64,000 bases of DNA from an uncultured bacterium (lineage in GTDB: Bacteria > Hydrothermota > Tepidihabitantia > Tepidihabitantales > Tepidihabitantaceae). The translations under genes and the position numbers were made by a program. Under the pieces are notes generated by a model, which was not told the origin of the DNA, searched no databases, and worked only from the letters and a program-made list of their open reading frames with translations. The stretch's first letter is position 1; each line of letters starts with the position of its first letter. Of the stretch, positions 4,551 to 48,692 are shown one piece after another. Location: assembly GCA_964597845.1 (NCBI GenBank), contig CAZQZR010000003.1, positions 3,427 to 67,426 on the forward strand, written 5' to 3'.

Positions 4551-4686
4551 CGACCCCTTGACTCCTCGAGTCCTCCTCTGTCTTCAATCCTCTACCTCTG
4601 CCTTCTGCATTCTGACCTCTGACTTCTGACTTCGGCCGTCCTGGCTCGACCCCTTGAATCCTCGACTCCTCGACCCCTTCTCGACT
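4551..4686. repeat. pyrimidine-rich heptamer-period word repeat spacer
   Basis: gactcct cgagtcc tcctctg ... cctctga cttctga cttcgg. The segment cttctgcattctgacctctgacttctgac is the inverted relative of 43347-43395. Confidence 0.6.
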
Positions 4687-9431: not shown

Positions 9432-9510
9432 GAGAATAGTGAATAGTAAATAGAGAATTGTGAAACTCGAATCCGCCTTTCACTATTCACCATTCTCAAT
9501 TCACTATTCC
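9432..9510. repeat. long imperfect hairpin built from heptamer words (gaatagt family)
   Basis: gagaatagtgaatagtaaatagagaattgtgaaa / tttcactattcaccattctcaattcactattcc are inverted arms around a 12-nt loop, immediately after the speB stop. The word ttctcaattcactattc recurs at 48251-48275. Confidence 0.6.
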
Positions 9511-9730: not shown

Positions 9731-9808
9731 CCCAACCAGCGAACCAGTTCGCAGTTAGGAGTTAGGAGTCAGGAGACGGTCCGACTGCTACCTGCTACCT
9801 GCTAACTC

Positions 9809-11932
9809 CTAAGGACTGACCAGGGCAACGCGCTCGACGCGCACCCCGCGCGGGGAGTTCACCACGAGCAGGTAGAGCCCGCTCGCCTTGTTCTGTGGCC
9901 GCCAGACCGCCTGGTGCCGCGCCGCCTCGACCCGCAGTTCGGCAACCGGCCGGCCATCGATCGTTCGCACTCCCACACTGGTCGCATCGTACGGCAACCC
10001 ATCGATCACGACGCCGCTATGCACCCCGAGAATGCACGGGTTCGGATAGACCCGCAGATGGTTCGCGGTGGTCTCCGGCGCCACGGAGTAATTGTATACG
10101 GACAGGCCGCGTTGCGTCCCGATCAAGGCGAGCCCGAGGTCGTCGCTCAGCGCCATCGCCGAGTAGAACCCGACAAACCCCTGGAGGTTCGCGATGAGGC
10201 CGCTGTTCTGGGGCGTGAAGCTGGTCCAGTTCCGGGCAACCTGGTCGTAGATTGAGAGCCCGGCCTCGGTCAAGAGCCACACGCGGTCCGATGCGTCGAC
10301 GCGGACTCGGTAGACGTTGTTCGCGAGGATGCCGCTGTTGGCGGTGGTGAAGACCTGGAACGAAGAACCGTTCCACGTCGCCGCGCCCTGCGGGGTCGCA
10401 ACCCAGACGCGGTCCTGTCCGTCAACCGCCACCGACCTGACTTCAGCCGACGGCAACCCGCCGGAAAGCACGGCATAGGAATCGTCGGACCGGTCGTGCA
10501 GGGTCCCGCCGTAGTCAATCATCACCAGCCCGACGGTCAGGCCCAACCAGGCCCGGCCGCGCGAGTCGAACGCAAACTCGTAGAGCCCGCCCGGCGGCGG
10601 CGCCAGGCCCGCGACCTCGAACACGGTCTGCTGAAGAACGGAGTCCACCGCGACTACGGTCCCACCGCCGTTGAAAACCCACTTGGTGTCATACTGGTCG
10701 ATGCCAAATGCGTCAATGATGTTCCAACTGGACAGGTCGCCCCATTGCACCTTCTGCCACGAGCCATCCGAGGGGTCGTACGCGGCCAGCCCGCCGTTGC
10801 CGGAGAAGTGCGCGAGCCAGATCCGGTTCTTGGAATCAACCCGCACCTGGACTGGTACGGGTAGCACGCTCCACATCACCGAAACCTGCCCTACCGAATC
10901 CACCAATGATATGGCGGAACCGTAGTGGCACAGGTAGATGTCGCCGGTCGAGCGGATAGCGCAGTCGGAAACCGCTGCGGACCAGATGCAGTTGCTGTAA
11001 TACGAGCTCCATGACTGGCCCGAGAAAGCATAGCGCAAACCTGACCCGTAGAGTTCGTTGCCTCCACAACCGACCCAAAGTGCGTCGGCAAAGTGCAAAA
11101 CCCGCGTGTCCTCATTGAGAATCACCGAGAATCGGGATGAATCGGCTCCGTCGCCCTCGTACAGCCCGGCTTGCGTCGCCAGGTAGATTCTCGGCCCGGA
11201 CACGACCAGTTGGTACACCTCAGTCGGCTCGCCAAAGCCGACGACCTTCCTGAACCCCGTGCTCTCTCTTATCGCCAGCCCTCGCTCGGTAGCGAGCAAC
11301 AGGCTGTCGTGCCACAGCGCGACGGCCCGCACCGAGTCGCCGAACGGCTGACGATAAGGCGTCCAGGACGTGAATCCGCGGTCAACCGCCACAACACCGC
11401 GATTGGTGCCCACCCAGTATTCGCTCAAGGCCGCGACGCAGAGTATCTGGTCGCTCAGCAACTCCGGCACCCGGGCCATGGTGAACCGGACGATGCTGTC
11501 GTCATCGAAGTCGAGGAACGTGCCGCGTGTCTCAATCACGTATAAGCCCTGGTCCGAACCGCAGAGCAGCCGGTCCCCATCCCATATCATGGTCCTGATC
11601 CGCAGGGCAAGGTCGTTAGGCCGGTACTGCCGGACCAGGCCGCTGTCCGGCTCAATCACGGCCATGCCGCCGCCATCGGTCCCGACCCAGAGGTCGCCGG
11701 CCGCATCCCGGCCGATACACAGGCACCGGTTCGTCGGCAACCCATCCGAATTCACGAACGTCCGGCGCAGCAGGGGCTCGGGCAGGATGTCGAGCGCGAC
11801 GACGCCGCCGTTGGTCGCAAGATACATGACCGAATCGGTACCGACCATACCTCTGATGAAGTTCGTGTTGGTATAGGACTGCCAGGCACCGGTGCTGCCG
11901 GTCGCGAGGAGAAGGAGGAGTAGTCCTGTCAT
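9809..11932 (-). CDS. beta-propeller protein (two-component-regulator-propeller-like repeats) with T9SS-type sorting domain
   Basis: 707 aa with signal peptide. Repeated ...G.LWVGT.GG....D... blades. C-terminal ...ASGLYLLVVNSPRGVRVERVALVSP. Confidence 0.65.
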   Translation of the reverse strand: MTGLLLLLLATGSTGAWQSYTNTNFIRGMVGTDSVMYLATNGGVVALDILPEPLLRRTFVNSDGLPTNRCLCIGRDAAGDLWVGTDGGGMAVIEPDSGLVRQYRPNDLALRIRTMIWDGDRLLCGSDQGLYVIETRGTFLDFDDDSIVRFTMARVPELLSDQILCVAALSEYWVGTNRGVVAVDRGFTSWTPYRQPFGDSVRAVALWHDSLLLATERGLAIRESTGFRKVVGFGEPTEVYQLVVSGPRIYLATQAGLYEGDGADSSRFSVILNEDTRVLHFADALWVGCGGNELYGSGLRYAFSGQSWSSYYSNCIWSAAVSDCAIRSTGDIYLCHYGSAISLVDSVGQVSVMWSVLPVPVQVRVDSKNRIWLAHFSGNGGLAAYDPSDGSWQKVQWGDLSSWNIIDAFGIDQYDTKWVFNGGGTVVAVDSVLQQTVFEVAGLAPPPGGLYEFAFDSRGRAWLGLTVGLVMIDYGGTLHDRSDDSYAVLSGGLPSAEVRSVAVDGQDRVWVATPQGAATWNGSSFQVFTTANSGILANNVYRVRVDASDRVWLLTEAGLSIYDQVARNWTSFTPQNSGLIANLQGFVGFYSAMALSDDLGLALIGTQRGLSVYNYSVAPETTANHLRVYPNPCILGVHSGVVIDGLPYDATSVGVRTIDGRPVAELRVEAARHQAVWRPQNKASGLYLLVVNSPRGVRVERVALVSP

Positions 11933-16969: not shown

Positions 16970-18643
16970 TCAAGCGCCCTCGCCCTCGCTTCTCCTCGTT
17001 TTCCCGGCCAGCACGGTCGCCGCTGCGAGGTAGAGAAACGGCATCGCCGGCACTCGGAATCGACCGTCGGTGAACGGCAGGGCAGCTACCACGAAGTATA
17101 ACCCAATGACGAGTAGCATCAGCTTCTCTGCCCGCCACCGCCTGAATGCCAGTGAAACCAGCGCCAGTAGAAAGGCCCCGATTGCGGTCAGCAGTTCGAA
17201 CCCGGCCAGGAGCCATATCGCGAGCCTTACGCCAGTGGAACCATAGTCCCGGTTCAGCAGCACGCTCCCCTGGGTCCCCGGCACCTTGGCATGAAGCATC
17301 CTCAGCACGAGGTCGTCCGACTTGATACCGGCAATGACCTTTGGCACGCCACGCAGGCATATCCAGGCGTAGCGGAGCGGGTCGTGGAGGATGATACTTG
17401 TCGCCTTGCGCGTCATCAGGTCGGCGAGCTCCAACGGGTTGTCCGTGGCGAGTCTCGCGGTGAAGTCGTGCGCGAGTTCTATCCTCGCGCTGTCCTGCGA
17501 GACGTGCTGCTCACCGCCTAGCACCGAGGCCGCGTTGGCATAGAGCAGGTTGTACCCGCCGTTCGAGGTGAGGCTGAACCGGTGAAAGTGATAGTAGTTC
17601 CGCGCCGCCCAGATTCCGGGCAGCAGCGAGAACGCAACCAGCATCAAGACCAACCCGCGCCAGTTCCTCCTCGCAGCCAGCGCGATTCCGAACGGCACGA
17701 ACGCAAGCAGGGCAACCGGCCTCACGAGCACCGCGAACCCCAGCACCAGCCCGGCCGCAGCCACACTCAACGCCCGGCTCGGCGTCCCCGCTCTCCCTTT
17801 GCCATTTCCCCTTTCCCATTCGCGCCTCGGTATGCCCGTTCTCCCTTCGCCATTTCCCCTTTCCCCTTCGCGCTTGGCGTCCTTGGCGGTTTCCCTTCCG
17901 CTCCTCACTTCGCCATTTCCCCTTTCCCATTCCTTCTTGGCGTTCTTGGCGTCCTTGGCGGTTTCCCTTCCACTCCTCACTTTGCCATTTCCCCTTTCCC
18001 CTTCTCCCCTTGGCCATCCCCAGACCAGCGCCGCCGCTAATACTACCGTGAACGCAAACAGCACCTCGGACATGACCATGCCCGACGAGAAGATGCTCGG
18101 GATGTCAACCGCAAGCAGTGCTGCACCCAAGAGCCCGACCCGCGAGTTGAACAGCCGGAGTCCGACCAGACCGGTGAGGAACACTGTGAGCCCGGCCAGC
18201 AGCGCCTGCACAATGACAATCGCAGTCACGTTACCGTTAAGGAAAGCAAGCAGCAACGGGTAGCCCGGAGTCCGAAACGTATTCGGAATCCCCGTTCCCA
18301 CTTTGCCGTTTCCCCCTTCCCCTTTGCTCCTCAGATTGCCATTTCCCCTTGAGACTTCTCCCCTTGTGCTCAGCCCTTCGCCATTTCCCCTTTCCCCTTC
18401 GCTTCCGGGCTCCTCGCTCCAGCTATACGATTGCCGGTGCCTGATGCCCGCGCCGAGCAACAGATACTGCTCCGAATCACCCAGCTCTATCTCCCCTCGC
18501 TTCAAGTAGGTTGCTTCCGTCTCAGGCTTCACCGGGTCAGCCGCAACGTAGCTGTGCCCCTTGAACGACGCGGAAACCGCCAGCCTGATGACGACTGCCG
18601 CCACGGCGATGGCCAGTAGCGCTCGGAACTCGCTCTTAGACAC
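16970..18643 (-). CDS. membrane glycosyltransferase (GT39/ArnT-PMT-like) carrying low-complexity inserts
   Basis: 557 aa and polytopic. RTPGYPLLLAF... core typical of ArnT/PMT_2-type enzymes. Two inserts are rich in GERGNGK/ETAKDAK and are encoded by the intergenic word repeats. Confidence 0.7.
   Translation of the reverse strand: MSKSEFRALLAIAVAAVVIRLAVSASFKGHSYVAADPVKPETEATYLKRGEIELGDSEQYLLLGAGIRHRQSYSWSEEPGSEGERGNGEGLSTRGEVSRGNGNLRSKGEGGNGKVGTGIPNTFRTPGYPLLLAFLNGNVTAIVIVQALLAGLTVFLTGLVGLRLFNSRVGLLGAALLAVDIPSIFSSGMVMSEVLFAFTVVLAAALVWGWPRGEGERGNGKVRSGRETAKDAKNAKKEWERGNGEVRSGRETAKDAKREGERGNGEGRTGIPRREWERGNGKGRAGTPSRALSVAAAGLVLGFAVLVRPVALLAFVPFGIALAARRNWRGLVLMLVAFSLLPGIWAARNYYHFHRFSLTSNGGYNLLYANAASVLGGEQHVSQDSARIELAHDFTARLATDNPLELADLMTRKATSIILHDPLRYAWICLRGVPKVIAGIKSDDLVLRMLHAKVPGTQGSVLLNRDYGSTGVRLAIWLLAGFELLTAIGAFLLALVSLAFRRWRAEKLMLLVIGLYFVVAALPFTDGRFRVPAMPFLYLAAATVLAGKTRRSEGEGA
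17787..18012. repeat. word-repeat block (ccatttc/ccctttc and cttggcgtc families) translated inside the GT39 gene
   Basis: About 75-nt unit duplicated in tandem (cttcgccatttcccctttccc...cttggcgtccttggcggtttcccttcc.ctcctca). Encodes GERGNGKVRSGRETAKDAK... The same words occur intergenically at 12120, 33190, 37462 and 50681. Confidence 0.75.
18291..18402. repeat. second word-repeat block inside the GT39 gene
   Basis: ttgccgtttcccccttcccctttgc...ttgccatttcccctt...cgccatttcccctttcccc, encoding EGERGNGEGLSTRGEVSRGNGNLRSKGEGGNGK. Confidence 0.7.
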
Positions 18644-18966
18644 GCACTACTTGTAGCCTGCCCGCGCCGACTGTCAAGCTAAACCGCGCCGGTGCAAGAC
18701 CAGCGCGGGCGGAGTCCGGCAGCTTAACTCCGCCCGCAGTTCGCTTCCGGTCGCGGCTGTCAGCCGGTCTCGTCCCAGGGGTTTGCCGGTGCAAGCCTTT
18801 GCCATTTCCACTTTGGACTTGTGACTTGCGCCCTCGCCATGCATCCTGACCCGGAATACGTTCCGCATGATAAGGATTCTTATCAAGCGTGTTGTCTCAG
18901 TTCCTTGTGTAAGTCCTGAACTATGAATTCACTGTCCCCTACTGCCTGGAAGTGACACCCCCGTCG

Positions 18967-19302
18967 GGGGGAGGCTCTCCCCAAGCCTTTGGCAGGCTCT
19001 TTGGCAAAGCCTCTGCCAAGGCCTTGGGCAAGCCCTCCGGCAAAGCCTCTGCCAAGCTCTTTGGTCAGGCCTCTGGCAAGGTCTTTGCCCCGCTCTTCGG
19101 CAAGGTCTCTCGTAAGGCCTCTGCCGAGGTCTCTGGTAATGTCTTTCCTCAGCTCCTTGGCAGAGTCTCTGGCAAGGTCTCTCCCAAGCTCATTGGCAAG
19201 CTCTTCGACAAGGCCTCTGGCAAAGCCTCTCCCAAGGCCTTTGGCAAGTCCTTGGGCAATGGCTCTGCCAAGCTCTTTCCTCCGTTCTTTGGCAGTACCT
19301 TT
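18967..19302. repeat. 12-nt degenerate tandem array A (28 units, consensus GGCAAGGCCTCT)
   Basis: 28 consecutive 12-mers in perfect phase with no indel. Positions 3, 4, 9, 10 and 12 (..CA....CT.T) are conserved. Open in three reading frames. Confidence 0.85.
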
Positions 19303-19702
19303 GCCCGGTTCCGATACCCGCCCGGCCAGCCGGCCGTCGATCACCGGCGACATTCGATTTGACACCACCCTCATTCGGGGTAATCCTGACCGCCGATGCA
19401 CAGTGGATTCAGCCCAGCCTTGACAGAGGCTGGAAATATAGGAAGTGTGCCAAATCTGACCCGGGCTCCAGTTCACTTTCCAGCATGATTGCTCCTTTCA
19501 TTCGGTCTCAATAAGCAATCTGCACTTTGGCCCCGAAATAATGCACCTTCCTTCGTCCGGCGCGGGACATGAATGAATTGTCCTCAATTCGTATCGTGTC
19601 CCAAGCCGGATTACAGCGCTGTGTCTCGTTAAGTGCCGGAACCTCAGCAACCTACAATCCGCAATCGTCAATCTACAATGCGGAGGGGCCCCGACAGGGG
19701 GA

Positions 19703-19858
19703 GTGGTTCTGACCGTGACTCTAAGACCAAATCTAACCGAGACTCTGACCGAGACTCTATCGTAGGCTCTGTCCGGGACTCTGACCGAGACTCTGTCCTA
19801 GACTCTAAGATAGAATCTGTCCGAGACTCTGTCCTAGACTCTGAGATAGAATCTGTCA
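19703..19858. repeat. 12-nt degenerate tandem array B (13 units, consensus GAGACTCTGTCC)
   Basis: 13 consecutive 12-mers in perfect phase (gagactctgacc gagactctatcg taggctctgtcc ...). Units contain GAC-tct-GTC dyads. Confidence 0.8.
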
Positions 19859-20017
19859 TAACCTGTTTTCCTCCCGCCTCGCGACCTCCGAGATACGCAG
19901 CCGAGTACCCTCTATCGGGACCTTTGCCCAAACCGGCGAATGGCGCAATTGGGCAGCTTGACTCCGGCCGAAACCAGACCTATCCCAGTGCCTGTGGATG
20001 TCGGATTCAGCCCGGCC

Positions 20018-20046
20018 TTGACGGGCACATAATTGAATACTATATC
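20018..20046 (+). promoter_or_regulatory. sigma70-like promoter followed by the CCCCGAAAT motif
   Basis: TTGACG-N17-TATATC, immediately followed by cccgaaattactcccc. Confidence 0.4.
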
Positions 20047-20084
20047 CCCGAAATTACTCCCCGGAATTACTCGGAATTACCTCG

Positions 20085-20112
20085 TTGACATCCACACTCG
20101 CCGTGCTATCAT
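20085..20112 (+). promoter_or_regulatory. sigma70-like promoter upstream of 20193
   Basis: TTGACA-N16-TATCAT about 80 nt upstream of the start. AGGAGG RBS at 20181-20186. Confidence 0.45.
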
Positions 20113-20192
20113 CACCACGATGCAGACCGAATCTGCAGCCTTGACGGAAGCGCGATGGGCAATGTGTCTCCGAATCCCACAGGAGGTGTGAT

Positions 20193-22319
20193 TTGACGAC
20201 GTCTCAACGTCCCCTCGGATCGGCTGCCGTGTTGGCGCTAGCCATGTTCCTAGTCTTGACGGGTCCTAGCTGTAAGAAGAATCATCCACCGCAAAAGCCG
20301 ACGATTGCCGGGCCGACAAGTGGTCGGCCTGGAGATACGCTGGCCTTCACGGTTGAAACGATAGACCCGGATGATGACATCGTATCTTACCTGTTCTCCT
20401 GGGGTGATACCGCGAGCGCCGAATGGACATCGGGGTACCCTAGCGGGCAAAACGTCACGCGGTCAAAGGTCTACATGGACTCCGGCGATTACGTGCTCAA
20501 GGTCAAAGCGCGTGACGTCCACGAACTGGAATCAGACTGGTCTGAGCCGTTTCAGGTCCTCGTCACTGAAGTGATGTCCCCTCCGTCGTTCGTAGGCGGA
20601 CCGGATACGGCTTGGGCTGGGCAGGCAAGCACGTACCGACTGGCTATTGCTCTGGCCCCGGGCTACGTCCGCTACGTGGTCGACTGGGCCGACGGCACCG
20701 TCGACACGACCGCCGCGGCATTCGCGCCGGCCGATACGACAGCCGTCGTCCACGTCTGGAACGCGGGCGGCGCGTTTGACATCAAAGCCAAGGCCTTTCT
20801 CGCGGATCAGCCGGGCGAAGGTTCGGACTGGTCGCCGCCCAAGTCGGTGGCAGTCATCGTCAACAGTCCGCCGGTGGTGGACTCCGTGCAGGCTCCGCCG
20901 GCCGCAGTCAAGAACGTCGAGGCGTTCTTCACTATTTGGGGCAGCGACCCGGACGGCGACAGCCTTCGGGTACTGGTAAACTGGGGCAGCAGCACGACGG
21001 ACACCGGCTACTTCCTGAACCCGTGCAACATCGAAGTCGGCCACGTCTTCACCCAGACAGAGACCGCCATGGTGATTGTCGAGACCCAAGACTGGAAGGG
21101 CACGAAATCTGCGCCGGACACGGTCTATGTGCCGGTCGTCACTGCCGGTGAGGTCGTCTGGTACTGGTGGAGCAACGACCCCGAGAACCATGAAAAACCG
21201 CTGACGACTTCCGTCATCGTGGCCAATGACGGCACGGACGAGGTCGTGCTCGGCAGTTGCGAAGGTGACTACCACTTCTACTCCATCCGCGCCAGCAACG
21301 GCCACAGCAAGAAGAGCGTGACCACCAAGGAGAACGAAGCCTCATTCACCGGCCACCCGGGCCTCGCGAACGGGCACATCATCGTCGGCAGCGACGAAGG
21401 CGAGCTCTACGCCTTGTCGCTGGTCAACAGCCTGCACGTAGACTGGCAGTTCCCGGACAGCGCAGCGGAGCGTGGGACGTACATCGAGTGGGGTGCACCG
21501 GCGTTCAACGGCTACAGCTTCTACATCGGCCATGACGACGACAGCATTTTCAAGTTCACGGACAACGGCGTCGCGGGCACCCGGGTTGCCGGGTACGGCC
21601 TCCGCGCCTCGGTGGTTGACGCGCCGATAGTCGACGCGACGGGCAACGTCATCTTCGGCACGGACTCGGCCTACTTGTACAAGATGGAGGGCAACCTGAG
21701 CTCGGTAATCTGGCGCGTCCGGTTGCTGGGCTTCGGCGAGGTCTACGGACCGATACTCGGCAGCGACGGCACGATTTACTGCGCCTCGGATTCCTCCCGT
21801 CTGTACGCGATTGACCCAACGGACGGCAGCGTGAAAACAGGCTGGCCGGTGACCCTGAATGGCGACGTGTCCCGGCCGGCCCTTGGCCAGTCGGCGCTCT
21901 TCGTCGCCAGCGGCTTCGGCAAGGCCTATTCCATCAATCCTGCGACCGGCACCATCAACTGGGAAAGAGCGCTCACCGAGACCGACGGGTTCTATACCAC
22001 CCCCGTCGTTGCGGCCAACGGCTACGTCTATTTCCAGAGCGACGCCGACCAGCTCTACTGCGTGAATCAGGCCGACGGCACGGTCATCTGGACCTGCAAC
22101 TGCCCGAACTACCTGCCCCGCACCGGTGGCGGCCGCCCGCACCGGCCGCGAAAGACGCAGTTGGTCTGGTACAGCCCGAACCCGTCCATCACGTCCACCG
22201 GTGACATCATCGTTGTCGGCGCGGACGCCTGCTACTGCGTAGACGGCCATGCAGGCCCGCTCGACCCGGCTGCTGCCTGGCCCAAGTGGCAGAAGAATCT
22301 CTACAACTCCGGCAAGTAG
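20193..22319 (+). CDS. lipoprotein with PKD-like repeats and a PQQ/BamB-like beta-propeller
   Basis: 708 aa with TTG start after AGGAGG. Lipobox-like LTGPSC. Three ..Y.F.WGD....W......V..V....G.Y....KA.D......S.WS... modules, then repeated G.vy......G..lYA.d...G propeller blades. Confidence 0.7.
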   Translation: MTTSQRPLGSAAVLALAMFLVLTGPSCKKNHPPQKPTIAGPTSGRPGDTLAFTVETIDPDDDIVSYLFSWGDTASAEWTSGYPSGQNVTRSKVYMDSGDYVLKVKARDVHELESDWSEPFQVLVTEVMSPPSFVGGPDTAWAGQASTYRLAIALAPGYVRYVVDWADGTVDTTAAAFAPADTTAVVHVWNAGGAFDIKAKAFLADQPGEGSDWSPPKSVAVIVNSPPVVDSVQAPPAAVKNVEAFFTIWGSDPDGDSLRVLVNWGSSTTDTGYFLNPCNIEVGHVFTQTETAMVIVETQDWKGTKSAPDTVYVPVVTAGEVVWYWWSNDPENHEKPLTTSVIVANDGTDEVVLGSCEGDYHFYSIRASNGHSKKSVTTKENEASFTGHPGLANGHIIVGSDEGELYALSLVNSLHVDWQFPDSAAERGTYIEWGAPAFNGYSFYIGHDDDSIFKFTDNGVAGTRVAGYGLRASVVDAPIVDATGNVIFGTDSAYLYKMEGNLSSVIWRVRLLGFGEVYGPILGSDGTIYCASDSSRLYAIDPTDGSVKTGWPVTLNGDVSRPALGQSALFVASGFGKAYSINPATGTINWERALTETDGFYTTPVVAANGYVYFQSDADQLYCVNQADGTVIWTCNCPNYLPRTGGGRPHRPRKTQLVWYSPNPSITSTGDIIVVGADACYCVDGHAGPLDPAAAWPKWQKNLYNSGK

Positions 22320-24266: not shown

Positions 24267-25721
24267 CTAGTCCTTTCCAGTCTTGATAATCTTCTGGCTA
24301 CGGCCGCTGGTCGGCCCCGGCATGACGTAATAGACGCCAGGCGCGAGCCGACTCACGTCATTGGCACCGGGCGCGAGGTCCAGCACCTTGCGGCCGGCGA
24401 CGTCCAGCAGGGCGGTTTTGGGGACAGTCCCCGTGCGGGGACAGTCCCCGCCAAGGAACAGCACGCCGCGGACGAGGGTCGGGCCGAGCTTGTGGCCTGA
24501 GGCTTGTGGCTTGAAGCTCTCCCCCACCCCGGCCCCGGCCGGTATCCAGACCGGCATCGCCGCTTCGCCAAGCAGGTTCCATTCAAAGAGACACCAACGG
24601 TACGTGGAACTGGTCTCGGCCAGGGGCACGGCATCGGCCCAGGCGTGGACGATGGCTTCGAGGCTGCCCTGGAGCGGGTCGGCGAACAGGCCGCGGACAA
24701 AGCCCTCGACCATCACGAATGACCCGCCCCGCTGGGGATTCTGTCCTGGACCGCCCAGGCCGTAGCGCGAGTTGCTCGCCACGGCCACGCCGCCGCCGTT
24801 CGGGTTCTGCATGAAATACTCGGAAGCGCAGTCCGCGGTGTCGAACTCTCCGGTTGAGCAGCCGACCGTCGTCATGATCGTGTACTTGCCCTGATTGGTA
24901 AACTGCGCCAGTTCCTCGCGGTACATGACGTAACCGTGGTTCATGTAGCCCATGCCCATGCCGAAGTAGTTGCAGTGGTCGGCATGAATCCAGATGTGCT
25001 GGCCCTGGTTAACGAGGTTCCTGACCGCGGTCTCATGGTTGCCGGTGTAGCTGTCGTAGACTCTGGCGCACGGTTTCATGCCGGAGGAGACATAGGCCGA
25101 GTCGTAGAGCTCCATCGTCGTCTCGCAGTAGACCCCGTCGAAGATGTCGAAACCGGAGAGCAGCACGTTGCGCAGGTACGGAGCGTCGGGGTCGGCGGTG
25201 TAGGCAAGGAACTTGCTGACGAACAGGTCCGCACCGGCGGTCGTGGTCGCGGGCACGCGGCCGACGAAGACGTCCGGGTACATGTCGCAGGAGTCCTCGG
25301 GTTCGCCGAACAGCCCGTTCCCGTTGGCATCCCATGTGCCGTCAAGGTCGGAGTAGTAGAGGTCGGCCGGGATGGAATCGAGCAGTATCGGATTGTAGCC
25401 GGTAGCATCGACCCAGGCGCGACGGCAGGGCACGATTTCCACGTCGCCGCCCAGCAGCACGTGGGTCGTGCCCCAGTTGGAGTATGCATACCTGATGAAG
25501 TTGCGAATCTTCTCCGGGTTGTCCCGACCGGAGTAGGAGGCGTATATCGCTGCGGTCGTCACGACCGTGTCGTTCAACCCCAGGGTGCCCGCAACGTAGC
25601 CGCAGAGCGTCGTGAAGTGCGACACGAAGGAATCGCACGTTATCACGACGTGCGGATACTCCTGGCCCGCGGCCGGCATCGCCGCGAGCATCAGCACGAA
25701 GAGCAGAGTCACTCGCTTCAA
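24267..25721 (-). CDS. gingipain-like cysteine peptidase (C25) lacking a propeptide, with T9SS-type sorting domain
   Basis: 484 aa. The signal peptide leads directly into the catalytic domain (VLLGGDVEIVPCRR, LYYSDLDGTWDANGNG, HADHCNYFGMG, TTVGCSTGEF). The sorting domain contains the 30-nt palindromic element. Confidence 0.8.
   Translation of the reverse strand: MKRVTLLFVLMLAAMPAAGQEYPHVVITCDSFVSHFTTLCGYVAGTLGLNDTVVTTAAIYASYSGRDNPEKIRNFIRYAYSNWGTTHVLLGGDVEIVPCRRAWVDATGYNPILLDSIPADLYYSDLDGTWDANGNGLFGEPEDSCDMYPDVFVGRVPATTTAGADLFVSKFLAYTADPDAPYLRNVLLSGFDIFDGVYCETTMELYDSAYVSSGMKPCARVYDSYTGNHETAVRNLVNQGQHIWIHADHCNYFGMGMGYMNHGYVMYREELAQFTNQGKYTIMTTVGCSTGEFDTADCASEYFMQNPNGGGVAVASNSRYGLGGPGQNPQRGGSFVMVEGFVRGLFADPLQGSLEAIVHAWADAVPLAETSSTYRWCLFEWNLLGEAAMPVWIPAGAGVGESFKPQASGHKLGPTLVRGVLFLGGDCPRTGTVPKTALLDVAGRKVLDLAPGANDVSRLAPGVYYVMPGPTSGRSQKIIKTGKD
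24420..24449 (-). repeat. double-palindrome element, in-frame in a C25 peptidase sorting domain
   Basis: GGGGACAGTCCCC-GTGC-GGGGACAGTCCCC, translated (minus strand) as GDCPRTGTVP(K). Confidence 0.9.
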
Positions 25722-27164: not shown

Positions 27165-28652
27165 CTAGCGGACGACCGCGACGCGAGCAAATGCGCCCGG
27201 TTCGATACCGCGCACGAAGTAGATGCCCGGCGCGAGATGACGCACGTCGTTGGCGCCGGGACGCAGGTCAAGCACCTCTCGCCCGCTGATGTCCAGCAGG
27301 GCGGCTTTGGGGACAGTCCCCGTGCGGGGACTGTCCCCGTTCAGGAACAGCGCACCGCGCACGACGGTGGGCATGCTATACTCCGCTCTCGCCCTGCCGG
27401 CGCCCGCTTCGCTCACCGCCGTGAACGGAAGAAGCAACGTGGCGGAGACGGTGTCGCCGTTGTCCGGAATCGAAAGCGGCATCTCGGTCGAGGAGCCCTG
27501 CGTCTGCCACCCCAGGTGTTTGACCTCGAACAGGTCGACGGAGCCGGTGCGGCCATCGGCCGTGTCGTCCAGGCAGGCGAGGTAGAGCGTGTCCTCTTCG
27601 CCGGTCAGCCACGGCGCGCCGTCGGTCAGGTCGAACGGGATACGCCGGTATGGGAACGGATGGTCGGTGACTGCGGCCCGCCACGACCGGAAGTCCTCGT
27701 GCCACAGGCTGCTCTCCGGCGTGCCGACGCCGAACCGGATTCCGACGCGGTCGCGGGTCGGGTGGCTGAACCGGACCGTGCCGATGAGCACCGGCTGGTA
27801 GTCGATCCGGTCAGTCACGTAGGCGGCGTAGGCGTAGACAATCCGTGTGTCCGCAGTCGCCTGGTAGGACATCCAGAAGTAGCCGCTGTCGCCCCAGGCC
27901 GTGCCCATCGAGTTGACGAGCCGGAACGCACCCGACCCGTCACGCGTGCCCATCGTGTCATCATACCCGACGATGGTCACCGCGTGCCCCGAAATCGGGC
28001 TGCCCTGCATGTCGGCCAGGGTGTAGGTGTTATTATAGTCGCTGATGTGCCAGAAATTGTCGTAGATGACGATGCCGGTGACACAGGTATTGCCGTTGGC
28101 GATGTGCTGGCGGATGAGGTTGACGAAGTTGGGGTCGTTGACGTCGAACCAGAACGCGCTGTCGGTCCGGAACATCATTGCGTTCAGGTACGCCTGCTCG
28201 GTCGGCCAGGTCAGATAGTCAAGGGTATCATATGGACAGTCGGCCATCGTGCCACAGCCCTGCTCGCACATCAGCGCCATCGCTCGGCTGAAAGTGGAAC
28301 TCCCGTTCGTCCCGCGGTTGATCTGGTTGTAGATGAATGCCGGGGCGCCCTGGTGGCTCGGATCGGTGAGGTCCCAGCCCCGTTCGCTGAACTCAAGCTG
28401 GGTCCGGTGGTAATAGCCGAACGCCCATGCGGTGCAGCAGTTCTGCCAGTGCTGGTTGCCGACCGGCGGCATCTCGTGCGACAGGTCGACATAGAGCACC
28501 GTGTCCGCGCACGGCCTCCCCGCCGCGACCGGAACCTCGGTCACCCTGTGAACCCACGGAATGGTATGCATGTCTTCACGGATGACGCCGCCGCAGCCAG
28601 GCGGCGCGACCTGCGCAATAACTACCAGCAGCACGGAGGCAAGAACCGGCAT
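27165..28652 (-). CDS. papain-like cysteine peptidase (C1) with T9SS-type sorting domain
   Basis: 495 aa. GNQHWQNCCTAWAFG (Gln/Cys), SGHAVTIVGYDD (His), NSMGTAWGDSGYFW (Asn/Trp). The sorting domain contains the palindromic element. Confidence 0.85.
   Translation of the reverse strand: MPVLASVLLVVIAQVAPPGCGGVIREDMHTIPWVHRVTEVPVAAGRPCADTVLYVDLSHEMPPVGNQHWQNCCTAWAFGYYHRTQLEFSERGWDLTDPSHQGAPAFIYNQINRGTNGSSTFSRAMALMCEQGCGTMADCPYDTLDYLTWPTEQAYLNAMMFRTDSAFWFDVNDPNFVNLIRQHIANGNTCVTGIVIYDNFWHISDYNNTYTLADMQGSPISGHAVTIVGYDDTMGTRDGSGAFRLVNSMGTAWGDSGYFWMSYQATADTRIVYAYAAYVTDRIDYQPVLIGTVRFSHPTRDRVGIRFGVGTPESSLWHEDFRSWRAAVTDHPFPYRRIPFDLTDGAPWLTGEEDTLYLACLDDTADGRTGSVDLFEVKHLGWQTQGSSTEMPLSIPDNGDTVSATLLLPFTAVSEAGAGRARAEYSMPTVVRGALFLNGDSPRTGTVPKAALLDISGREVLDLRPGANDVRHLAPGIYFVRGIEPGAFARVAVVR
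27309..27338 (-). repeat. double-palindrome element, in-frame in the C1 peptidase sorting domain
   Basis: GGGGACAGTCCCC-GTGC-GGGGACTGTCCCC, translated as GDSPRTGTVP(K). Confidence 0.9.
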
Positions 28653-28655
28653 GCG

Positions 28656-30533
28656 CTACTTCGTAATCACGATGCGGCTGGCCCCGGACCACGCATCTGT
28701 CTGCGTGCGCACGAAGTACACGCCGGGTGCGAGGCGACGCACGTCGTTCGGACCGGGATGCAGGTCGAGCACCTCTCGCCCGCTGATGTCGAGGAGCACG
28801 GTTTTGGGGACAGTCCCCGTGCGGGGACAGTCCCCGTTCAGGAACAGCACACGGCCAATGACCGTGGCGCGCGGCCCGGCCGGTCCGAGCGGGCCAGCGC
28901 TTTCCTCAGCGAGGCCGACCACGTCGTCGCCGAGCACGACGGTGAATGCAACCGGCATCATGATGGTGTTGCCAGCATCGGTGAAGGTCACCTCAAGCCG
29001 GAGCGGAATGGTATCTCCCGGCTGCCCCAGGTCGGACGCCCGAACCAGGAACTGGTCGGCCCGGTTGTCGACGTCGCTCAGGCGACCGACGCCCGGGAAC
29101 GACTTGACCGAGTCCAACACCGTGACGAGCGTATCGAGCGACACCAGCCTTGCGCTGATGCTGTATGCCGAGTCGAGCGGGTGTATGGCCCGGTTCCGAA
29201 TGGTGAACCAGACACGCGCGGTCTCGCCGGGGTCGAGCCGGCCCGACGAGTTGCCCGACCCCGTATCGTTGACCGTGCTCGCCACTGGGTCGAAGTACAC
29301 GCCGGCGATGCGGGCCAGGTAGTAGAGGGTCGGGACGTCTCCGTCAACTTCCTTGCGCATGAGCGCGGAGTCGTTCCAGCAGGCGTAGAACCACGTGTCT
29401 GCTTCGATCGTGAACGCGTAGGTGACGAACTTGCCCCCGGAATCGGATAGCCCCCAGTCAATCTGGATGCCGTTACAGAGGTAGAGGACGTTCGAGGCCT
29501 GGCCGGTCCTCGCGTAGTCGTAGTCGTTGTACATCTGGAACGTGTCAACCACCTCCTGGAGCAGGGCCTGTTCCGGGGGCGAGGAGTAGGTATACCCCCA
29601 CGGGTAGCAGTTGTACCCGCCGAAGCAGTGGAAGTCCTGCTCGGTGCGGAACCGGTGTGCGGCCTCCAGGTCGCGGGCCGCAGTGGCTTCCGCGTCGCTC
29701 CAGGCATAGGGACCACGGTAGGCGTGCGACGAGGGGTTGGGGGATGAACCAACGTTGTCGTAGCCCCACTTGTAGCCGTGGTTGCGGGACGGGTCCACGC
29801 CGATGTTCGGGGGCACGACGACGCGGCGGTTCTTGCGCCAGTAGACGCCCGCGCCGCCCGAGTCCGAGCAGAAAACAGAACAGTCCGGGTTGAGTATCGG
29901 TACCGTATAGATTTCGCGGTTGTTAACCAGCCAGGTGGACAACGGGTCGGTTCCGTAGCCGGACAGAATCTGTTGCAGGAAAGCCATGACAATGGACGTA
30001 CCCATCGGCTCGTCGCCGTGAGTCGAGCCGGAGAAGTAACAGGCCGGCTCGTCCTCCTCCACCGATGCGTTGTCCGATATCTTGAGGCACAGAATGTCGC
30101 GGTTCTGGCTGGTAGTCCCGATGACGAAAAGGCTGCAGATTTCCGGGTACCTGGCCGCGAAGGCGATGACCGAATCCGTCATCTCCCAGTAGGTGTAGTA
30201 GTAGCCGAAGTCCTGGAGGGTCGGCGGCTGGTCCGGGTCTACGCCGGTGAACAGCTGGAACTTCTCGTCGAGGTTGGCCCATGTAACTGCGGTCTCGAGC
30301 CCGCAGTCCCGGATGCGGGCAAGCTGCTCCGCGTCGGTGACAAGGACCAGGTACGTGCCGTTCTCGTCCGTGCCATGAGAACAGATGTAGAGGTCCCCGG
30401 CAAGGTCACCGAGCCGGTCGAGGTCACGGGCGTCGTTGACGTACAGCCTTGCCTCAATGAGCGTCACGGACCGGTCTTGGGCAAACCCGGCTGTCACCAG
30501 GCACACGAGGGCAAGTAGCATCATCCGGTACAT
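28656..30533 (-). CDS. M14 zinc carboxypeptidase with T9SS-type sorting domain
   Basis: 625 aa. AAGGAG RBS and signal peptide. Zn-binding region FSGSTHGDEPMG. The sorting domain contains the palindromic element. Confidence 0.85.
   Translation of the reverse strand: MYRMMLLALVCLVTAGFAQDRSVTLIEARLYVNDARDLDRLGDLAGDLYICSHGTDENGTYLVLVTDAEQLARIRDCGLETAVTWANLDEKFQLFTGVDPDQPPTLQDFGYYYTYWEMTDSVIAFAARYPEICSLFVIGTTSQNRDILCLKISDNASVEEDEPACYFSGSTHGDEPMGTSIVMAFLQQILSGYGTDPLSTWLVNNREIYTVPILNPDCSVFCSDSGGAGVYWRKNRRVVVPPNIGVDPSRNHGYKWGYDNVGSSPNPSSHAYRGPYAWSDAEATAARDLEAAHRFRTEQDFHCFGGYNCYPWGYTYSSPPEQALLQEVVDTFQMYNDYDYARTGQASNVLYLCNGIQIDWGLSDSGGKFVTYAFTIEADTWFYACWNDSALMRKEVDGDVPTLYYLARIAGVYFDPVASTVNDTGSGNSSGRLDPGETARVWFTIRNRAIHPLDSAYSISARLVSLDTLVTVLDSVKSFPGVGRLSDVDNRADQFLVRASDLGQPGDTIPLRLEVTFTDAGNTIMMPVAFTVVLGDDVVGLAEESAGPLGPAGPRATVIGRVLFLNGDCPRTGTVPKTVLLDISGREVLDLHPGPNDVRRLAPGVYFVRTQTDAWSGASRIVITK
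28806..28835 (-). repeat. double-palindrome element, in-frame in the M14 peptidase sorting domain
   Basis: GGGGACAGTCCCC-GTGC-GGGGACAGTCCCC, translated as GDCPRTGTVP(K). Confidence 0.9.
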
Positions 30534-40792: not shown

Positions 40793-42400
40793 ATGCAACT
40801 CGTCAAGAACGCGCTCGGCCGCATGGTCCCGACCGAGGTCAACGGCAAGCCGGCAATCCCATTCCCCGGAGTAGGTAAGCACCGGCCCACCGGCCGCAAG
40901 GCCTGCCCGCAAATCCCGACCTGCCTTGATTACCCGGAAGACGGCAACAAAGTCGTGGCCGACTTGAGGACCGCGATCGAGAAGGCCGGTATCCGCAACG
41001 GCACGACTCTCTCGACCCACCACCACTTCCGCGACGGCGATACACTCCCACTCCAACTCTTCGACCTCTGCGCCGAAATGGGTCTTAAGGACTTGGTCTG
41101 GTATCCTTCGGCCGCCTTCCCGTGCCACGCGCCGATAACCAAACATCTCGACTCCGGCGTCATCCACCACATCGAAGGCAGCTTAAACGGCCCCTTGGGA
41201 GACTACTGCACCCAGGGCAAGATGCGCGGGCTGGGCGTGCTCCGCTCGCACGGCGGCCGTGCCCAGGCGATTCAGGATGGTGAAATCCACATCGACATCG
41301 CGGTTGTCGCCGCGCCGACTGCCGACCAGTTCGGCAACGCCAACGGGGTCCACGGCGACACGGCCTGCGGCGTGCTCGGCTACGCCCCCGCCGACGTAAC
41401 CTATGCCGACCGGACTATCGTAGTCACCGACAACCTGGTCCCCTTCCCGGCAATCCCCATCCAGCTCTCGGGCACGTACGTCGACATGGTCGTACAGCAG
41501 GACCATATCGGCGACCCAAAGAAAATCGTCTCGGGCACGACCCAGATTACGCGCAGCCCGGACCGGCTCTACATCGCCGAACTGACCGCGAAGTTCATCC
41601 GTGACGCCGGCATCATGCGCGACGGGTTCAGCTTCCAGGCGGGCGCCGGCGGCGTCTCGCTCGCCTTCGCCATCTACCTTGCCGACATGATGAAGCAGAA
41701 CGGGGTCAAAGCAGGCTGGCTCCACGGCGGCTCGACCCGGTACCTCGTGAAGATGCTCGAGGACGGCCTTGCGCCCGCGCTGGTTGACGGGCAGGCATTC
41801 GACGAGGACGCAATCCGCTCCATCGCGGTCAACCGCGGCCACATCTCCACCAGCCCCCTGGTCAGCTACAACTTCCACGCCAAAGGCAACTACATCAACC
41901 TGCTCGACGTGGCCGTGCTCGGCGCGACCGAAGTGGACACGAACTTCAACGCCAACGTCGTCACCCATTCGGACGGCCGCCTGCGCCACGGCATCGGCGG
42001 CTGGCAGAACTGCATGTACGCCCGCTGCACGATACTCTCGGTACCCGCCATGCGCGACCGGATGCCGGTCATCGTTGACGAAGTAACCACGCTCTGCGCC
42101 CCGGGCGAACTTGTAGACGTCATCGTCACCGAGCTCGGAATCGCCATCAACCCCAGACGACAGGACCTGCTCGATGCGGTCAAAGGCAAGGGCCTCCCGG
42201 TCCGGCCCATCGAAGACATCAAGGCCGAGGTCGAGCGCATCTGCGGCAAACCGGCCCGTCAGGCGCGCGAAAACGGGGACTGTCCCGCGCCGAGTTCGAC
42301 GCAGGCGCTCCGGGGGACTGTCCCCAGTTTTCGCCGAGTCGTAGCCGTCGTCAAATGGGTTGACGGCACGGTACTCGACTCGGTGTACCAAGTCAGTTAG
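40793..42400 (+). CDS. citF: citrate lyase alpha subunit (citrate CoA-transferase)
   Basis: 535 aa with the ATG directly after the CitE stop. CitF-like length and N-terminus (NALGRMVPTEVNGK...PF.G). C-terminal region interrupted by a palindromic-element variant. Confidence 0.8.
   Translation: MQLVKNALGRMVPTEVNGKPAIPFPGVGKHRPTGRKACPQIPTCLDYPEDGNKVVADLRTAIEKAGIRNGTTLSTHHHFRDGDTLPLQLFDLCAEMGLKDLVWYPSAAFPCHAPITKHLDSGVIHHIEGSLNGPLGDYCTQGKMRGLGVLRSHGGRAQAIQDGEIHIDIAVVAAPTADQFGNANGVHGDTACGVLGYAPADVTYADRTIVVTDNLVPFPAIPIQLSGTYVDMVVQQDHIGDPKKIVSGTTQITRSPDRLYIAELTAKFIRDAGIMRDGFSFQAGAGGVSLAFAIYLADMMKQNGVKAGWLHGGSTRYLVKMLEDGLAPALVDGQAFDEDAIRSIAVNRGHISTSPLVSYNFHAKGNYINLLDVAVLGATEVDTNFNANVVTHSDGRLRHGIGGWQNCMYARCTILSVPAMRDRMPVIVDEVTTLCAPGELVDVIVTELGIAINPRRQDLLDAVKGKGLPVRPIEDIKAEVERICGKPARQARENGDCPAPSSTQALRGTVPSFRRVVAVVKWVDGTVLDSVYQVS
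42275..42325 (+). repeat. palindromic element variant with expanded spacer, in-frame in citF
   Basis: GGGGACTGTCCC-N26-GGGGACTGTCCCC, flanked by the inverted GCGAAAAC / GTTTTCGC. Translated as GDCPAPSSTQALRGTVP. Confidence 0.8.
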
Positions 42401-42712
42401 GAGTTAGCAGTTAGCAGTTAGGAGTTGGCAGACCGCTGACTCCGTCCAGCTCAGGCACAAGCGCAAGCCCTAGGCTGGCTCAAGCGCAAGCTCAAGCACA
42501 AGCTGGCCCGCCGTTTTGGCCTTTGGCTTTTGGCTTCTCCGCCTCCACACTTCTGCGCTCTAGCCTCTAGCTTCTTCACTCTGACTTCGTCTCTTCGATG
42601 CCTTCTTGGTGGACTCCGGTTCGGACTTGGCGATCTTGGCGTCCTTGGCGGTTCAATCTCGGCTTCCGGGTCGGTTTCTGGACTCCTGCCTCCTGCCCGG
42701 TAGAATCCCAGG

Positions 42713-48071: not shown

Positions 48072-48311
48072 GACCTTCTCCCGCTCAGGCGACCCGGGTT
48101 GAGTGTCGTAGACTGCGCGGTTGGTATCTTCCTCTGTCCCGCCATTCGCCTACTTCCTTCAGAAGTAGGGCCAGTTTCCAGCACCCCGGCGCACGCTTCC
48201 CGTTCGGCCCAGTTTCCTATATGTCCCCTCGAAATCGAGCCCCGAAATCCTGTAACTTCTCTATTCTCAATTCACTATTCACTCTTGCCGAAACTCCCCT
48301 ACCCCATCCCC

Positions 48312-48647
48312 TAGACTGTTTGGTGAATTGTCCGGAGAATCATCTAGAGAGCAATCCGGCAGACTATCCTCCAGACTATCCGCCAGACAATCTGGAGAAT
48401 CATCTAGACGACTATCCAGCAGACTATCTGGAAGACAATCTCCCGGAGAATGTGGAGGACAATCTGGACCGCAGTCTGGAGAACCATTCAGCCGACTATT
48501 CCGCAGATTGCCCGGAGAATCATCTGGAGAGCAATCTGGAGGATTATCCGGAGAGCAATCGGGCAGACAATCTACCCGATTATTCGGTAGATTGTCTGGT
48601 GAATTGCCTGGCGGATTATCTGGAGAACTATCCGGGGAATTCTCGTC
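48312..48647. repeat. 12-nt degenerate tandem array C (28 units, consensus NRGAYWATCYGG)
   Basis: 28 consecutive 12-mers in perfect phase with no indel (agaatcatctag agagcaatccgg cagactatcctc ...). Positions 3-4 GA, 7-8 AT and 11-12 GG are conserved. Open in three reading frames. Begins about 20 nt after the HerA terminator. Confidence 0.85.
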
Positions 48648-48666: not shown

Positions 48667-48692
48667 CCGGGGCGCGGAATTCCGCGTCCCGG
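48667..48692 (-). terminator. palindromic hairpin after the HerA-like gene
   Basis: CCGGGGCGCGGAATTCCGCGTCCCGG, followed on the minus strand by CTGTCTGTTTAGG, 24 nt after the stop. Confidence 0.5.

Follow-up and report, generated by a model that had tools for sequence, protein, structure and literature searches.

The DNA analysed here (the window) is a stretch of 64,000 nucleotides (nt) from an uncultured bacterium of the Hydrothermota (contig CAZQZR010000003.1, positions 3,427 to 67,426, forward strand). Between a PMT-like glycosyltransferase gene (minus strand) and a PQQ beta-propeller lipoprotein gene (plus strand) it contains a gene-free region of 1,549 bp (18644-20192), which surrounds two tandem arrays of degenerate 12-nt units, array A and array B. 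A third array in strict register, array C, was found by a sliding-lag scan of the window; it has a beta-propeller gene on one side and, on the other, the 3' end of a HerA-like ATPase gene. The arrays and the features that accompany them are listed below. All promoter-like sites are consensus matches only; TTGACA-16-TATCAT (20085-20112) scores 11/12 in a consensus scan and the others were read from the sequence.

18869..18917, plus strand: A-type leader blocks, the 16-bp palindrome GATAAGGATTCTTATC (18869-18884) and TGTGTAAGTCC (18907-18917)
18952..18971, plus strand: GTG (ATG in relatives), GC hairpin CCCCCGTCGGGGGG, then AGGCTC; conserved
18967..19302, plus strand: array A, 28 x 12 nt, family register GGC AAG GYC TYT
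19359..19424, plus strand: post-A module, sigma-70-like TTGACA-16-TAATCC (19359-19386) and GGATTCAGCCCAGCCTTGAC (19405-19424), as read from the sequence
19564..19602, no strand assigned: palindrome GGGACATGAATGAATTGTCC..CGTGTCCC between A and B, resembling repetitive extragenic palindromic (REP) elements
19655..19701, plus strand: B leader, heptamers CAATCCG CAATCGT CAATCTA CAAT and hairpin CCCCGACAGGGGG
19703..19858, plus strand: array B, 13 x 12 nt, register GAC CGA GAC TCT, core AGACTCT
19859..19894, plus strand: B-type trailer GTCATAACCTGTTTTCCTCCCGCCTCGCGACCTCCGAGAT, a diverged version of the 30-nt block GTTTCAAACCCGTCTCGCGACCTCCGAAAC
19958..20112, plus strand: promoter-like cluster between B and the lipoprotein gene, TTGACT-17-TATCCC, GGATTCAGCCCGGCCTTGAC, TTGACG-17-TATATC and TTGACA-16-TATCAT
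48257..48313, plus strand: C leader, TTCACTA-type heptamers and a C-rich tract
48321..48644, plus strand: array C, 27 x 12 nt, register GGA GAA TCA TCT / GGC AGA CTA TCC
48667..48692, no strand assigned: GC hairpin CCGGGGCGCGGAATTCCGCGTCCCGG, separating array C from the 3' end of the HerA-like gene

Structure of arrays A and B

An earlier note on this DNA had described A and B as 28 and 13 consecutive 12-mers in perfect register, set in a gene-free region of about 1.5 kb. This description was borne out. The lag-12 self-match was 0.59 in A and 0.67 in B, compared with 0.04-0.37 at lags other than multiples of 12. The highest self-match in this autocorrelation, which the note had proposed, was at lag 36 (0.68 and 0.77, respectively). 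Tandem Repeats Finder likewise reported period 12 with a higher-order 36-nt period in both, and in a repeat scan of the A/B region every copy spacing was a multiple of 12. Neither array contains an internal indel. When flanking part-units are included, array A has approximately 29-30 units. The two array starts are 736 nt apart (61 x 12 + 4), which places the arrays out of phase with each other.

The consensus unit is GGCAAGGTCTTT in A and GAGACTCTGACC in B; these agree overall with the units proposed earlier and differ only where positions are nearly tied. Neighbouring units match at just 59-67% of positions. The most fixed positions in A are C9 (28/28) and T10 (26/28), and 13/13 units of B carry TCT. 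Local dyads occur within units, as had been noticed, but no link was found between the B dyad and the GGGGAC/GTCCCC palindromes with which it had been compared.

Pfam gave nothing meaningful for the open reading frames (ORFs) within 18644-20192 or for any array ORF. When columns were permuted among units, 0 stops were expected in the open frames of A and B, so their openness is trivial; the earlier view that frames stay open merely because the units lack stops holds for these two arrays. The note had also seen no codon-wobble conservation. In the family frame of A, the mean information content per codon position was 0.98, 0.82 and 1.07, and a wobble pattern was indeed absent.

A family of arrays with a common layout

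The search for further arrays that the note had recommended yielded array C and additional 12-nt tracts in related sequence. Array C, the common layout of leader and trailer and the spread of the family had escaped the note. Cassettes outside the window come from other metagenomes and comprise three A-type and four B-type copies, with DNA for six (L001-L156 denote related loci; P0009 and P0013 are protein entries). Leader, hairpin, spacer-less array and trailer form an architecture common to A-type and B-type copies. Arrays A, B and C and the B-type arrays of L020, L033 and L154 share the unit register G-N-C-A-R-R-N-N-N-T-C-Y, with the hairpin set 5'. A and B share a 5' CCCC..GGGG hairpin, and the array heads read CCCCCGTCGGGGGG-AGGCTC in A, CCCCGACAGGGGG-AGTGGTTC in B and CCCCCCCGACGGGGGG-AGTGGCTC in L020. 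The hairpin followed by GGGGGAG(T)GGCTC stands ahead of the A-type arrays and of 4/5 B-type arrays, the leader of L154 being different; hairpin plus GGGGGAGTGGCTC also heads B-type arrays. Short heptamer repeats stand 5' of the hairpin, and the layout of the B leader recurs in L020, L032 and L033.

A-type copies share a leader of approximately 90 nt that includes the palindrome GATAAGGATTCTTATC and the block TGTAAGTCC. The leader blocks of A keep their register in L155 and L156, the stretches that separate the blocks being near random, and [A/G]TGACACCCCCG..GGGGGGAGG is conserved across the window, L155 and L156. The motif of the post-A module has a second copy at 20003-20022 and is homologous in L156. 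B-type copies share a trailer of approximately 50 nt. Its 30-nt block GTTTCAAACCCGTCTCGCGACCTCCGAAAC (window 19865-19894, L154 301-330, L020 20601-20630, L032 10551-10580) resembles a repeat of clustered regularly interspaced short palindromic repeats (CRISPR; GTTTC...GAAAC). It was rejected as such, with one copy per cassette and no match in viral contigs. The arrays themselves are contiguous 12-mers and not 25-40-nt repeats with unique spacers, as a CRISPR array would be. An inverted-repeat scan of the A/B region gave no terminal inverted repeats that were convincing; by eye only, the L020 copy has a GACCTCCG-like direct repeat on both sides.

Two other sequence patterns were noted. The 10-mer CCGGTGCAAG lies beside or inside 12-nt array regions in three genomes (window 18689-18698 and 18786-18795, L002 2524-2533, L003 1959-1968). 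Both window copies are just upstream of array A, and 0.23 would be expected by chance. A 12-nt-spaced GACTCY pattern in viral contigs was judged non-specific, as Asp-Ser coding repeats would match it too.

Arrays compared between species

The B-type arrays of L020 and L033 contain 28 units each and differ by 47 substitutions and 0 indels over 336 nt; outside the leader heptamers and the trailer, the two sequences are not alignable. Array A of the window and that of L155 differ by 64 substitutions and 0 indels over 369 nt. Identity is 7-12 of 12 in all 30 units of this alignment and then falls to chance level. Related arrays are 13-17% substituted and colinear unit by unit; across two independent pairs with a total of 111 substitutions, 0 small indels occur. 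The flanks, which are largely unalignable, open 3-11 gaps per ~150 nt in global alignment. Between the window and L155 the array is more similar than its own homologous leader (84.8% versus 63.6% identity, Fisher p = 3e-5). The alignment of the four A-type peptides has only two gaps, whose lengths of 8 and 44 residues correspond to 2 and 11 whole units. B-type arrays contain 13, 17 or 28 units.

The earlier note had taken the strict phase as a sign of register constraint and not of a young slippage microsatellite, and had named indels and variable phase in related genomes as the outcome that would speak for slippage. The opposite was observed: relatives are colinear at 13-17% substitution, they differ by whole units only, and copy-number polymorphism is absent among near-identical strains. 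A neutral microsatellite or variable-number tandem repeat was rejected on the match between adjacent units (59-67%), the constant copy number of near-identical strains and the lack of small indels. The arrays are real and are more than a microsatellite. They form a dispersed family with a common architecture in which register and unit order are held between species.

Dispersal and strain variability

B-type cassettes occupy at least four contexts (the window; L020/L032; L033; L154) and A-type cassettes three. The same carboxyltransferase gene is on the leader side in both L020 and L032 and variable restriction-modification genes are near, but the downstream genes differ: one has a DNA methylase cluster, the other a type I restriction-modification operon. 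One A-type cassette is followed by another 12-nt array and an IS30-like element.

Extra 12-nt arrays stand beside A-type cassettes at L156 432-728 and L155 579-793. The minus strand of the L156 extra array reads as a His-rich repeat, (G-H-H-x / G-Y-D-C)n. Just downstream there is an inserted IS30-like element with an rve domain and 25-nt inverted repeats. The motif GGATTCAGCCCRGCCTTGAC was considered as the end of an insertion sequence and rejected, as the IS30-like inverted repeats begin just past it.

Homologues of the lipoprotein gene were found in candidate division WOR-3 genomes (60-71% identity) and in metagenome contigs (up to 77%); the exception among the matches is one 114-residue fragment identical to the window. 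The bacterium was assigned to candidate division WOR-3. None of the 19 loci with such homologues (best 77% identity) has an array at that position. The same contigs carry paired 12-nt arrays with quite different units in other intergenic regions (L003 1100-1363 and 1621-1968; L002 2087-2362 and 2410-2589).

Contigs that encode the same glycosyltransferase match the window exactly over both A and B. Array C is present in L025-L028, which encode an identical HerA-like protein, with the same 27 units and 1-2 substitutions; L020 and L022-L024, in which the HerA-like protein has at least 90% identity, lack it. Its site is occupied by an ORF-less group II intron right after the terminator hairpin in L022-L024 and by heptamer repeats in L020. 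The intron (L022 11290-11935, also in L023 and L024) matches RF02001 with E = 3e-29 and begins a few bases past the HerA terminator hairpin. L028 and the window do not differ through array C; at the array edge they diverge. Strains reached via HerA and the glycosyltransferase were either identical to the window or without the array.

In approximately 333 kb of related sequence, in which several loci overlap or duplicate one another, 28 long periodic tracts have period 7/14, 25 have period 12/24 and only seven have other periods. The frequency of cassettes in the lineage is approximately 1 per 20-30 kb. Their positions next to the group II intron site, restriction-modification genes and an insertion sequence suggest that cassettes mark hot spots of recombination and insertion. 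That long repeats are confined to periods 7 and 12 hints that a specific machinery generates or reads them in this uncultured phylum.

Such a distribution is in keeping with a selfish or neutral satellite-like repeat family without host function. The 12-nt monomer length would be inherited, unequal recombination in register would alter the arrays, and the cassettes would spread at variable intergenic sites through recombination or hitch-hiking; the apparent conservation would reflect recent exchange. The strain specificity of array C, with an intron or heptamers in its place, fits this account, as do the array-free lipoprotein loci of distant relatives, the variable restriction-modification genes and IS30-like element beside cassettes, the sharp break of identity in L028 and the many other repeat families in the genome. 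It does not readily explain why small indels are lacking in arrays whose flanks are gapped, why unit number and order are held at 13-17% divergence, why near-identical strains show no copy-number polymorphism or why a single frame is open in nine arrays (see below). We consider this explanation unlikely.

Coding potential

Of the six frames, only the register frame (x-K/R-x-S) is stop-free in all nine arrays tested, every other frame being broken in at least one. Column shuffles gave 3.95 expected stops in this frame for array C (P 0.003), 2.0 for L020 (P 0.057) and 2.5 for L033 (P 0.044). All A-type copies keep an ATG or GTG just 5' of the hairpin. These properties would follow if the cassettes were small genes, with translation of the register frame starting at the ATG/GTG and yielding a disordered tetrapeptide-repeat peptide, (G-K-A/V/L-S/F)n from A, (D-R-D-S)n from B and (G-R/E-L/Q-S)n from C, whose frame, length and gross composition matter while its exact residues do not. 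The period equals four codons, and the A-type alignments contain no frame-breaking gaps. A-type peptides begin alike with M-T-P-P/S-x-G-G-G; P0013 as deposited begins M-G-G-G, and an in-frame ATG four codons upstream gives back M-T-P-P-M-G-G-G. Both differences between the consensus of B (GAC CGA GAC TCT) and that of L020 (GAC AGA GAC TCC) are synonymous. Gene callers predicted the register frame in L020, L032, L033, L154, L155 and L156.

The substitutions themselves argue against coding. Their distribution over the three codon positions is 22:23:19 in A and 19:9:19 in B-type arrays, with no third-position excess. The ratio of nonsynonymous to synonymous changes per site (pN/pS) is 1.22 in A and 0.64 in B-type arrays, which is not below that of other frames. 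In the comparison of A with L155, pS of the open frame is 0.149, so that synonymous divergence is far under leader divergence. The second codon of B-type units is always NNA and encodes R, I, L, V or K; given these varied amino acids, the conserved entity in B-type arrays is the nucleotide core AGACTCY.

Codon usage and translation signals are also poor. GC content at third codon positions is 0.31-0.67 in the arrays versus 0.78 in window genes, which make little use of the codons that recur in the arrays, TCT, AGA and TTT (3.2, 2.7 and 4.6 per thousand, respectively); TCT and AGA are among their rarest. Codon scores of the register frame are 0.23 in A, -0.15 in B and -0.84 in C, compared with a mean of 0.36 for genes. 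The sense-frame starts lack a Shine-Dalgarno sequence, while a clear AGGAGG precedes many genes in the genome. The start codon is conserved in A-type copies only and is directly followed by a stable GC hairpin; B-type copies have no conserved start. For array A in the same strain, a gene caller picked the antisense frame, and a protein search with the antisense A ORF gave no matches. In an exact look-up in the protein collection, no array ORF was present with those start codons. AlphaFold2 predicted neither secondary structure nor fold (predicted local distance difference test score 50), and no family match was obtained.

The substitution pattern is not of the coding type. The even spread of changes over codon positions, pN/pS, synonymous conservation, codon usage and the lack of a Shine-Dalgarno sequence indicate that at least part of the constraint acts on nucleic acid. 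The tetrapeptide-repeat product proposed by the earlier note keeps some standing because one frame is open in all nine arrays, but pN/pS of 0.64-1.22 is neutral. We regard translated small genes, the main rival of the lattice proposed below, as possible though doubtful.

RNA folding and position relative to promoters

Arrays A and C fold better than shuffled sequences on both strands (z -3.8 to -6.1). The sense RNA of B-type arrays has no extra stability over shuffles (z -1.41 in L020 and -0.93 in B), so the structured transcript suggested earlier fails as a property of the whole family. Structured non-coding RNAs whose sequence is constrained by folding would agree with the z-scores of A and C and with the dyads within units. 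Tandem quasi-palindromic units yield low z-scores by construction, however, and Rfam gave no gathering-score match across the window, only chance-level matches (E 0.5-0.8) in 18600-20250. This explanation is very improbable. The window contains no tRNA or tmRNA.

Three further candidates were rejected. Pairing between arrays A and B (76-80% complementarity) is accounted for by their shared quasi-palindromic core. A Rho-utilisation (rut) site, with YC dimers every 12 nt, was dismissed because the arrays are not C-rich and G-poor and because A and C are strongly self-pairing. For a CsrA-type GGA sponge, or a mimic of the anti-Shine-Dalgarno or Shine-Dalgarno sequence, the motifs as seen by eye were inconsistent in strand and not in all arrays.

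The co-oriented downstream genes are separated from the arrays by sigma-70-like sites, and the leader side faces a divergent gene in 5/5 cassette contexts with readable neighbours. The arrays are therefore located upstream of promoters, as far as these promoter-like sites go, in long intergenic regions.

A phased lattice as a possible function

Tentatively, we favour the interpretation that the cassettes are non-coding and modular and that their iterons constitute a phased binding lattice. A protein-binding array, one of the three causes named in the earlier note, would be compatible with the data. A, B and C would be copies of a lineage-specific, dispersed intergenic cassette composed of a leader (heptamers and a CCCC-N3/4-GGGG hairpin), 13-29 degenerate 12-nt iterons and a short trailer, which may work as nucleic acid and not as a conventional protein gene. 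The lattice would be occupied by a putative repeated or oligomerising nucleic-acid-binding factor. DNA is the favoured target because the arrays lie upstream of sigma-70-like promoters, at a distance of 150-300 nt, in intergenic regions that are long and mostly divergent; the alternative target is the sense transcript. Binding of this kind may affect neighbouring promoters. Under the lattice model spacing would shift only by whole units, and many bases would be free to change. Arrays would lengthen or shorten by in-register recombination in steps of 12, 24 or 36 nt, and whole cassettes would be copied or exchanged among intergenic sites that may also be hot spots for other mobile DNA.

Several points weigh against this interpretation. 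The open register frame, the deficit of stops and the kept A-type start are coding-like signals. No DNA-binding gene accompanies the cassettes. The unit sequences of A, B and C differ, so a single sequence-specific reader must tolerate much variation. Substitutions between orthologous A arrays are almost even over the 12 unit positions, unlike those of a short recognition motif. The lower divergence of arrays than of flanks could stem from recombination history, as L028 breaks at the edge of array C.

The arrays may also belong to an undescribed 'register-only' class of WOR-3 elements, comprising 12-nt arrays and a second class of 7-nt arrays, in which phase, unit number and one open frame are kept across species while the sequence is coding-neutral. 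Members would be either chromosomal nucleoprotein lattices with an oligomerising factor or ORFs whose translation outweighs the product. We hold this broader idea with considerable doubt. If the register constraint is real, it would define a functional class of bacterial intergenic DNA that annotation misses or labels 'hypothetical protein', and it would provide a testable example of spacing or frame being under selection while sequence is not.

Other repeats in the window and its relatives

Heptamer arrays fill intergenic regions of the window (9434-9509, 9753-9812, 42394-42536, 4589-4678 and many others). A heptamer array and its reverse complement are often paired, which gives a long hairpin. 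The heptamer CAGTTAG (reverse complement CTAACTG) resembles TAACTGA repeats (PMC4679880).

The palindrome GGGGACTGTCCCC occurs at 13 sites, mostly in pairs 17 nt apart, with 0.24 expected by chance (window 24420-24449, 27309-27338, 28806-28835, 42275-42325, 58833-58862 and 59779-59836). By coordinates most sites are inside long ORFs, like palindromic elements that insert in frame into genes. The REP-like palindrome between A and B, GGGACATGA..GAATTGTC..CGTGTCCC (window 19564-19602, L001 13342-13389, L003 17677-17722), matches the L001 copy in truA at 92% and the L003 copy at 80%. Both of these copies are inside an ORF that reads as a tRNA pseudouridine synthase (truA-like) and whose frame is apparently unbroken, and the L003 ORF holds additional GGGGACTGTCCC copies.

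In the PMT-like glycosyltransferase ORF (16970-18643), TTTCCCC / CTTGGCGTC blocks at 17795-18011 and 18384-18399 translate as GERGNGE-type inserts; such blocks are also intergenic at L020 21090-21150 and L001 12737-12808. A cluster member, P0009 (443 aa), suggests a variable gene start or length. A 120-nt repeat in seven copies (73% matches) at 61545-62379, in the minus-strand ORF 61269-62714, is probably an ordinary 40-residue protein repeat.

Comparison with known systems

By analogy, the closest published layout is that of BrickBuilt, an element of Porphyromonas gingivalis described as a miniature transposable element with inverted repeats (MITE) and minisatellite, which consists of a leader, a spacer-less 23-nt array and a tail (Klein et al. 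2015, PMC4596501). It is present in many dispersed non-identical copies that are always intergenic, sometimes mis-annotated as hypothetical genes, and carry promoter elements (PMC4596501). The cassettes share its modular order of leader, array and tail and its multiple dispersed intergenic copies (three in the window, at least four contexts for the B-type and three for the A-type). The 23-nt BrickBuilt unit is well conserved and part of an inverted-repeat MITE, whereas the unit here has 12 nt, is about one-third degenerate and varies in sequence between copies. The cassettes also differ in having one open frame, and terminal inverted repeats or target duplications were not demonstrated.

Iteron and centromere arrays, to which ribbon-helix-helix or winged-helix proteins bind (omega heptads, ParR/parC, ParG ACTC boxes and TubR/tubC), likewise consist of many contiguous short direct repeats in strict register. 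They often have dyad cores and stand upstream of promoters, and the reader protein polymerises along the DNA. tubC contains iterons, and some tubC sites use 12-bp repeats. These systems have 4-20 well-conserved units beside partition or regulator genes, in one or few arrays per replicon. In contrast, the arrays described here have 13-29 degenerate units, number at least three in 64 kb of chromosome and have no partner gene; their neighbours (PMT-like glycosyltransferase, PQQ beta-propeller lipoprotein and HerA-like ATPase) include no partition or replication genes.

The repeats of Borgs, extrachromosomal elements of Methanoperedens, are essentially perfect copies. Unlike them, the present arrays are degenerate, 13-17% diverged and of stable unit number. 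Borg repeats have been described as pervasive tandem direct repeats of an uncultured lineage, found in intergenic regions and in ORFs, where they yield disordered low-complexity peptide regions, and as recently formed and rapidly evolving (PMC9879509).

TAACTGA heptamer direct repeats of Beggiatoaceae, Cyanobacteria and Bacteroidetes are intergenic and of fixed period 7, with 2-6 copies in most sets and up to 43 (PMC4679880). Heptamer repeats cannot encode a peptide repeat, and the 12-nt arrays are longer and conserved between species. The two are alike as abundant intergenic short tandem repeats of one period, and the same WOR-3 genome is full of heptamer arrays.

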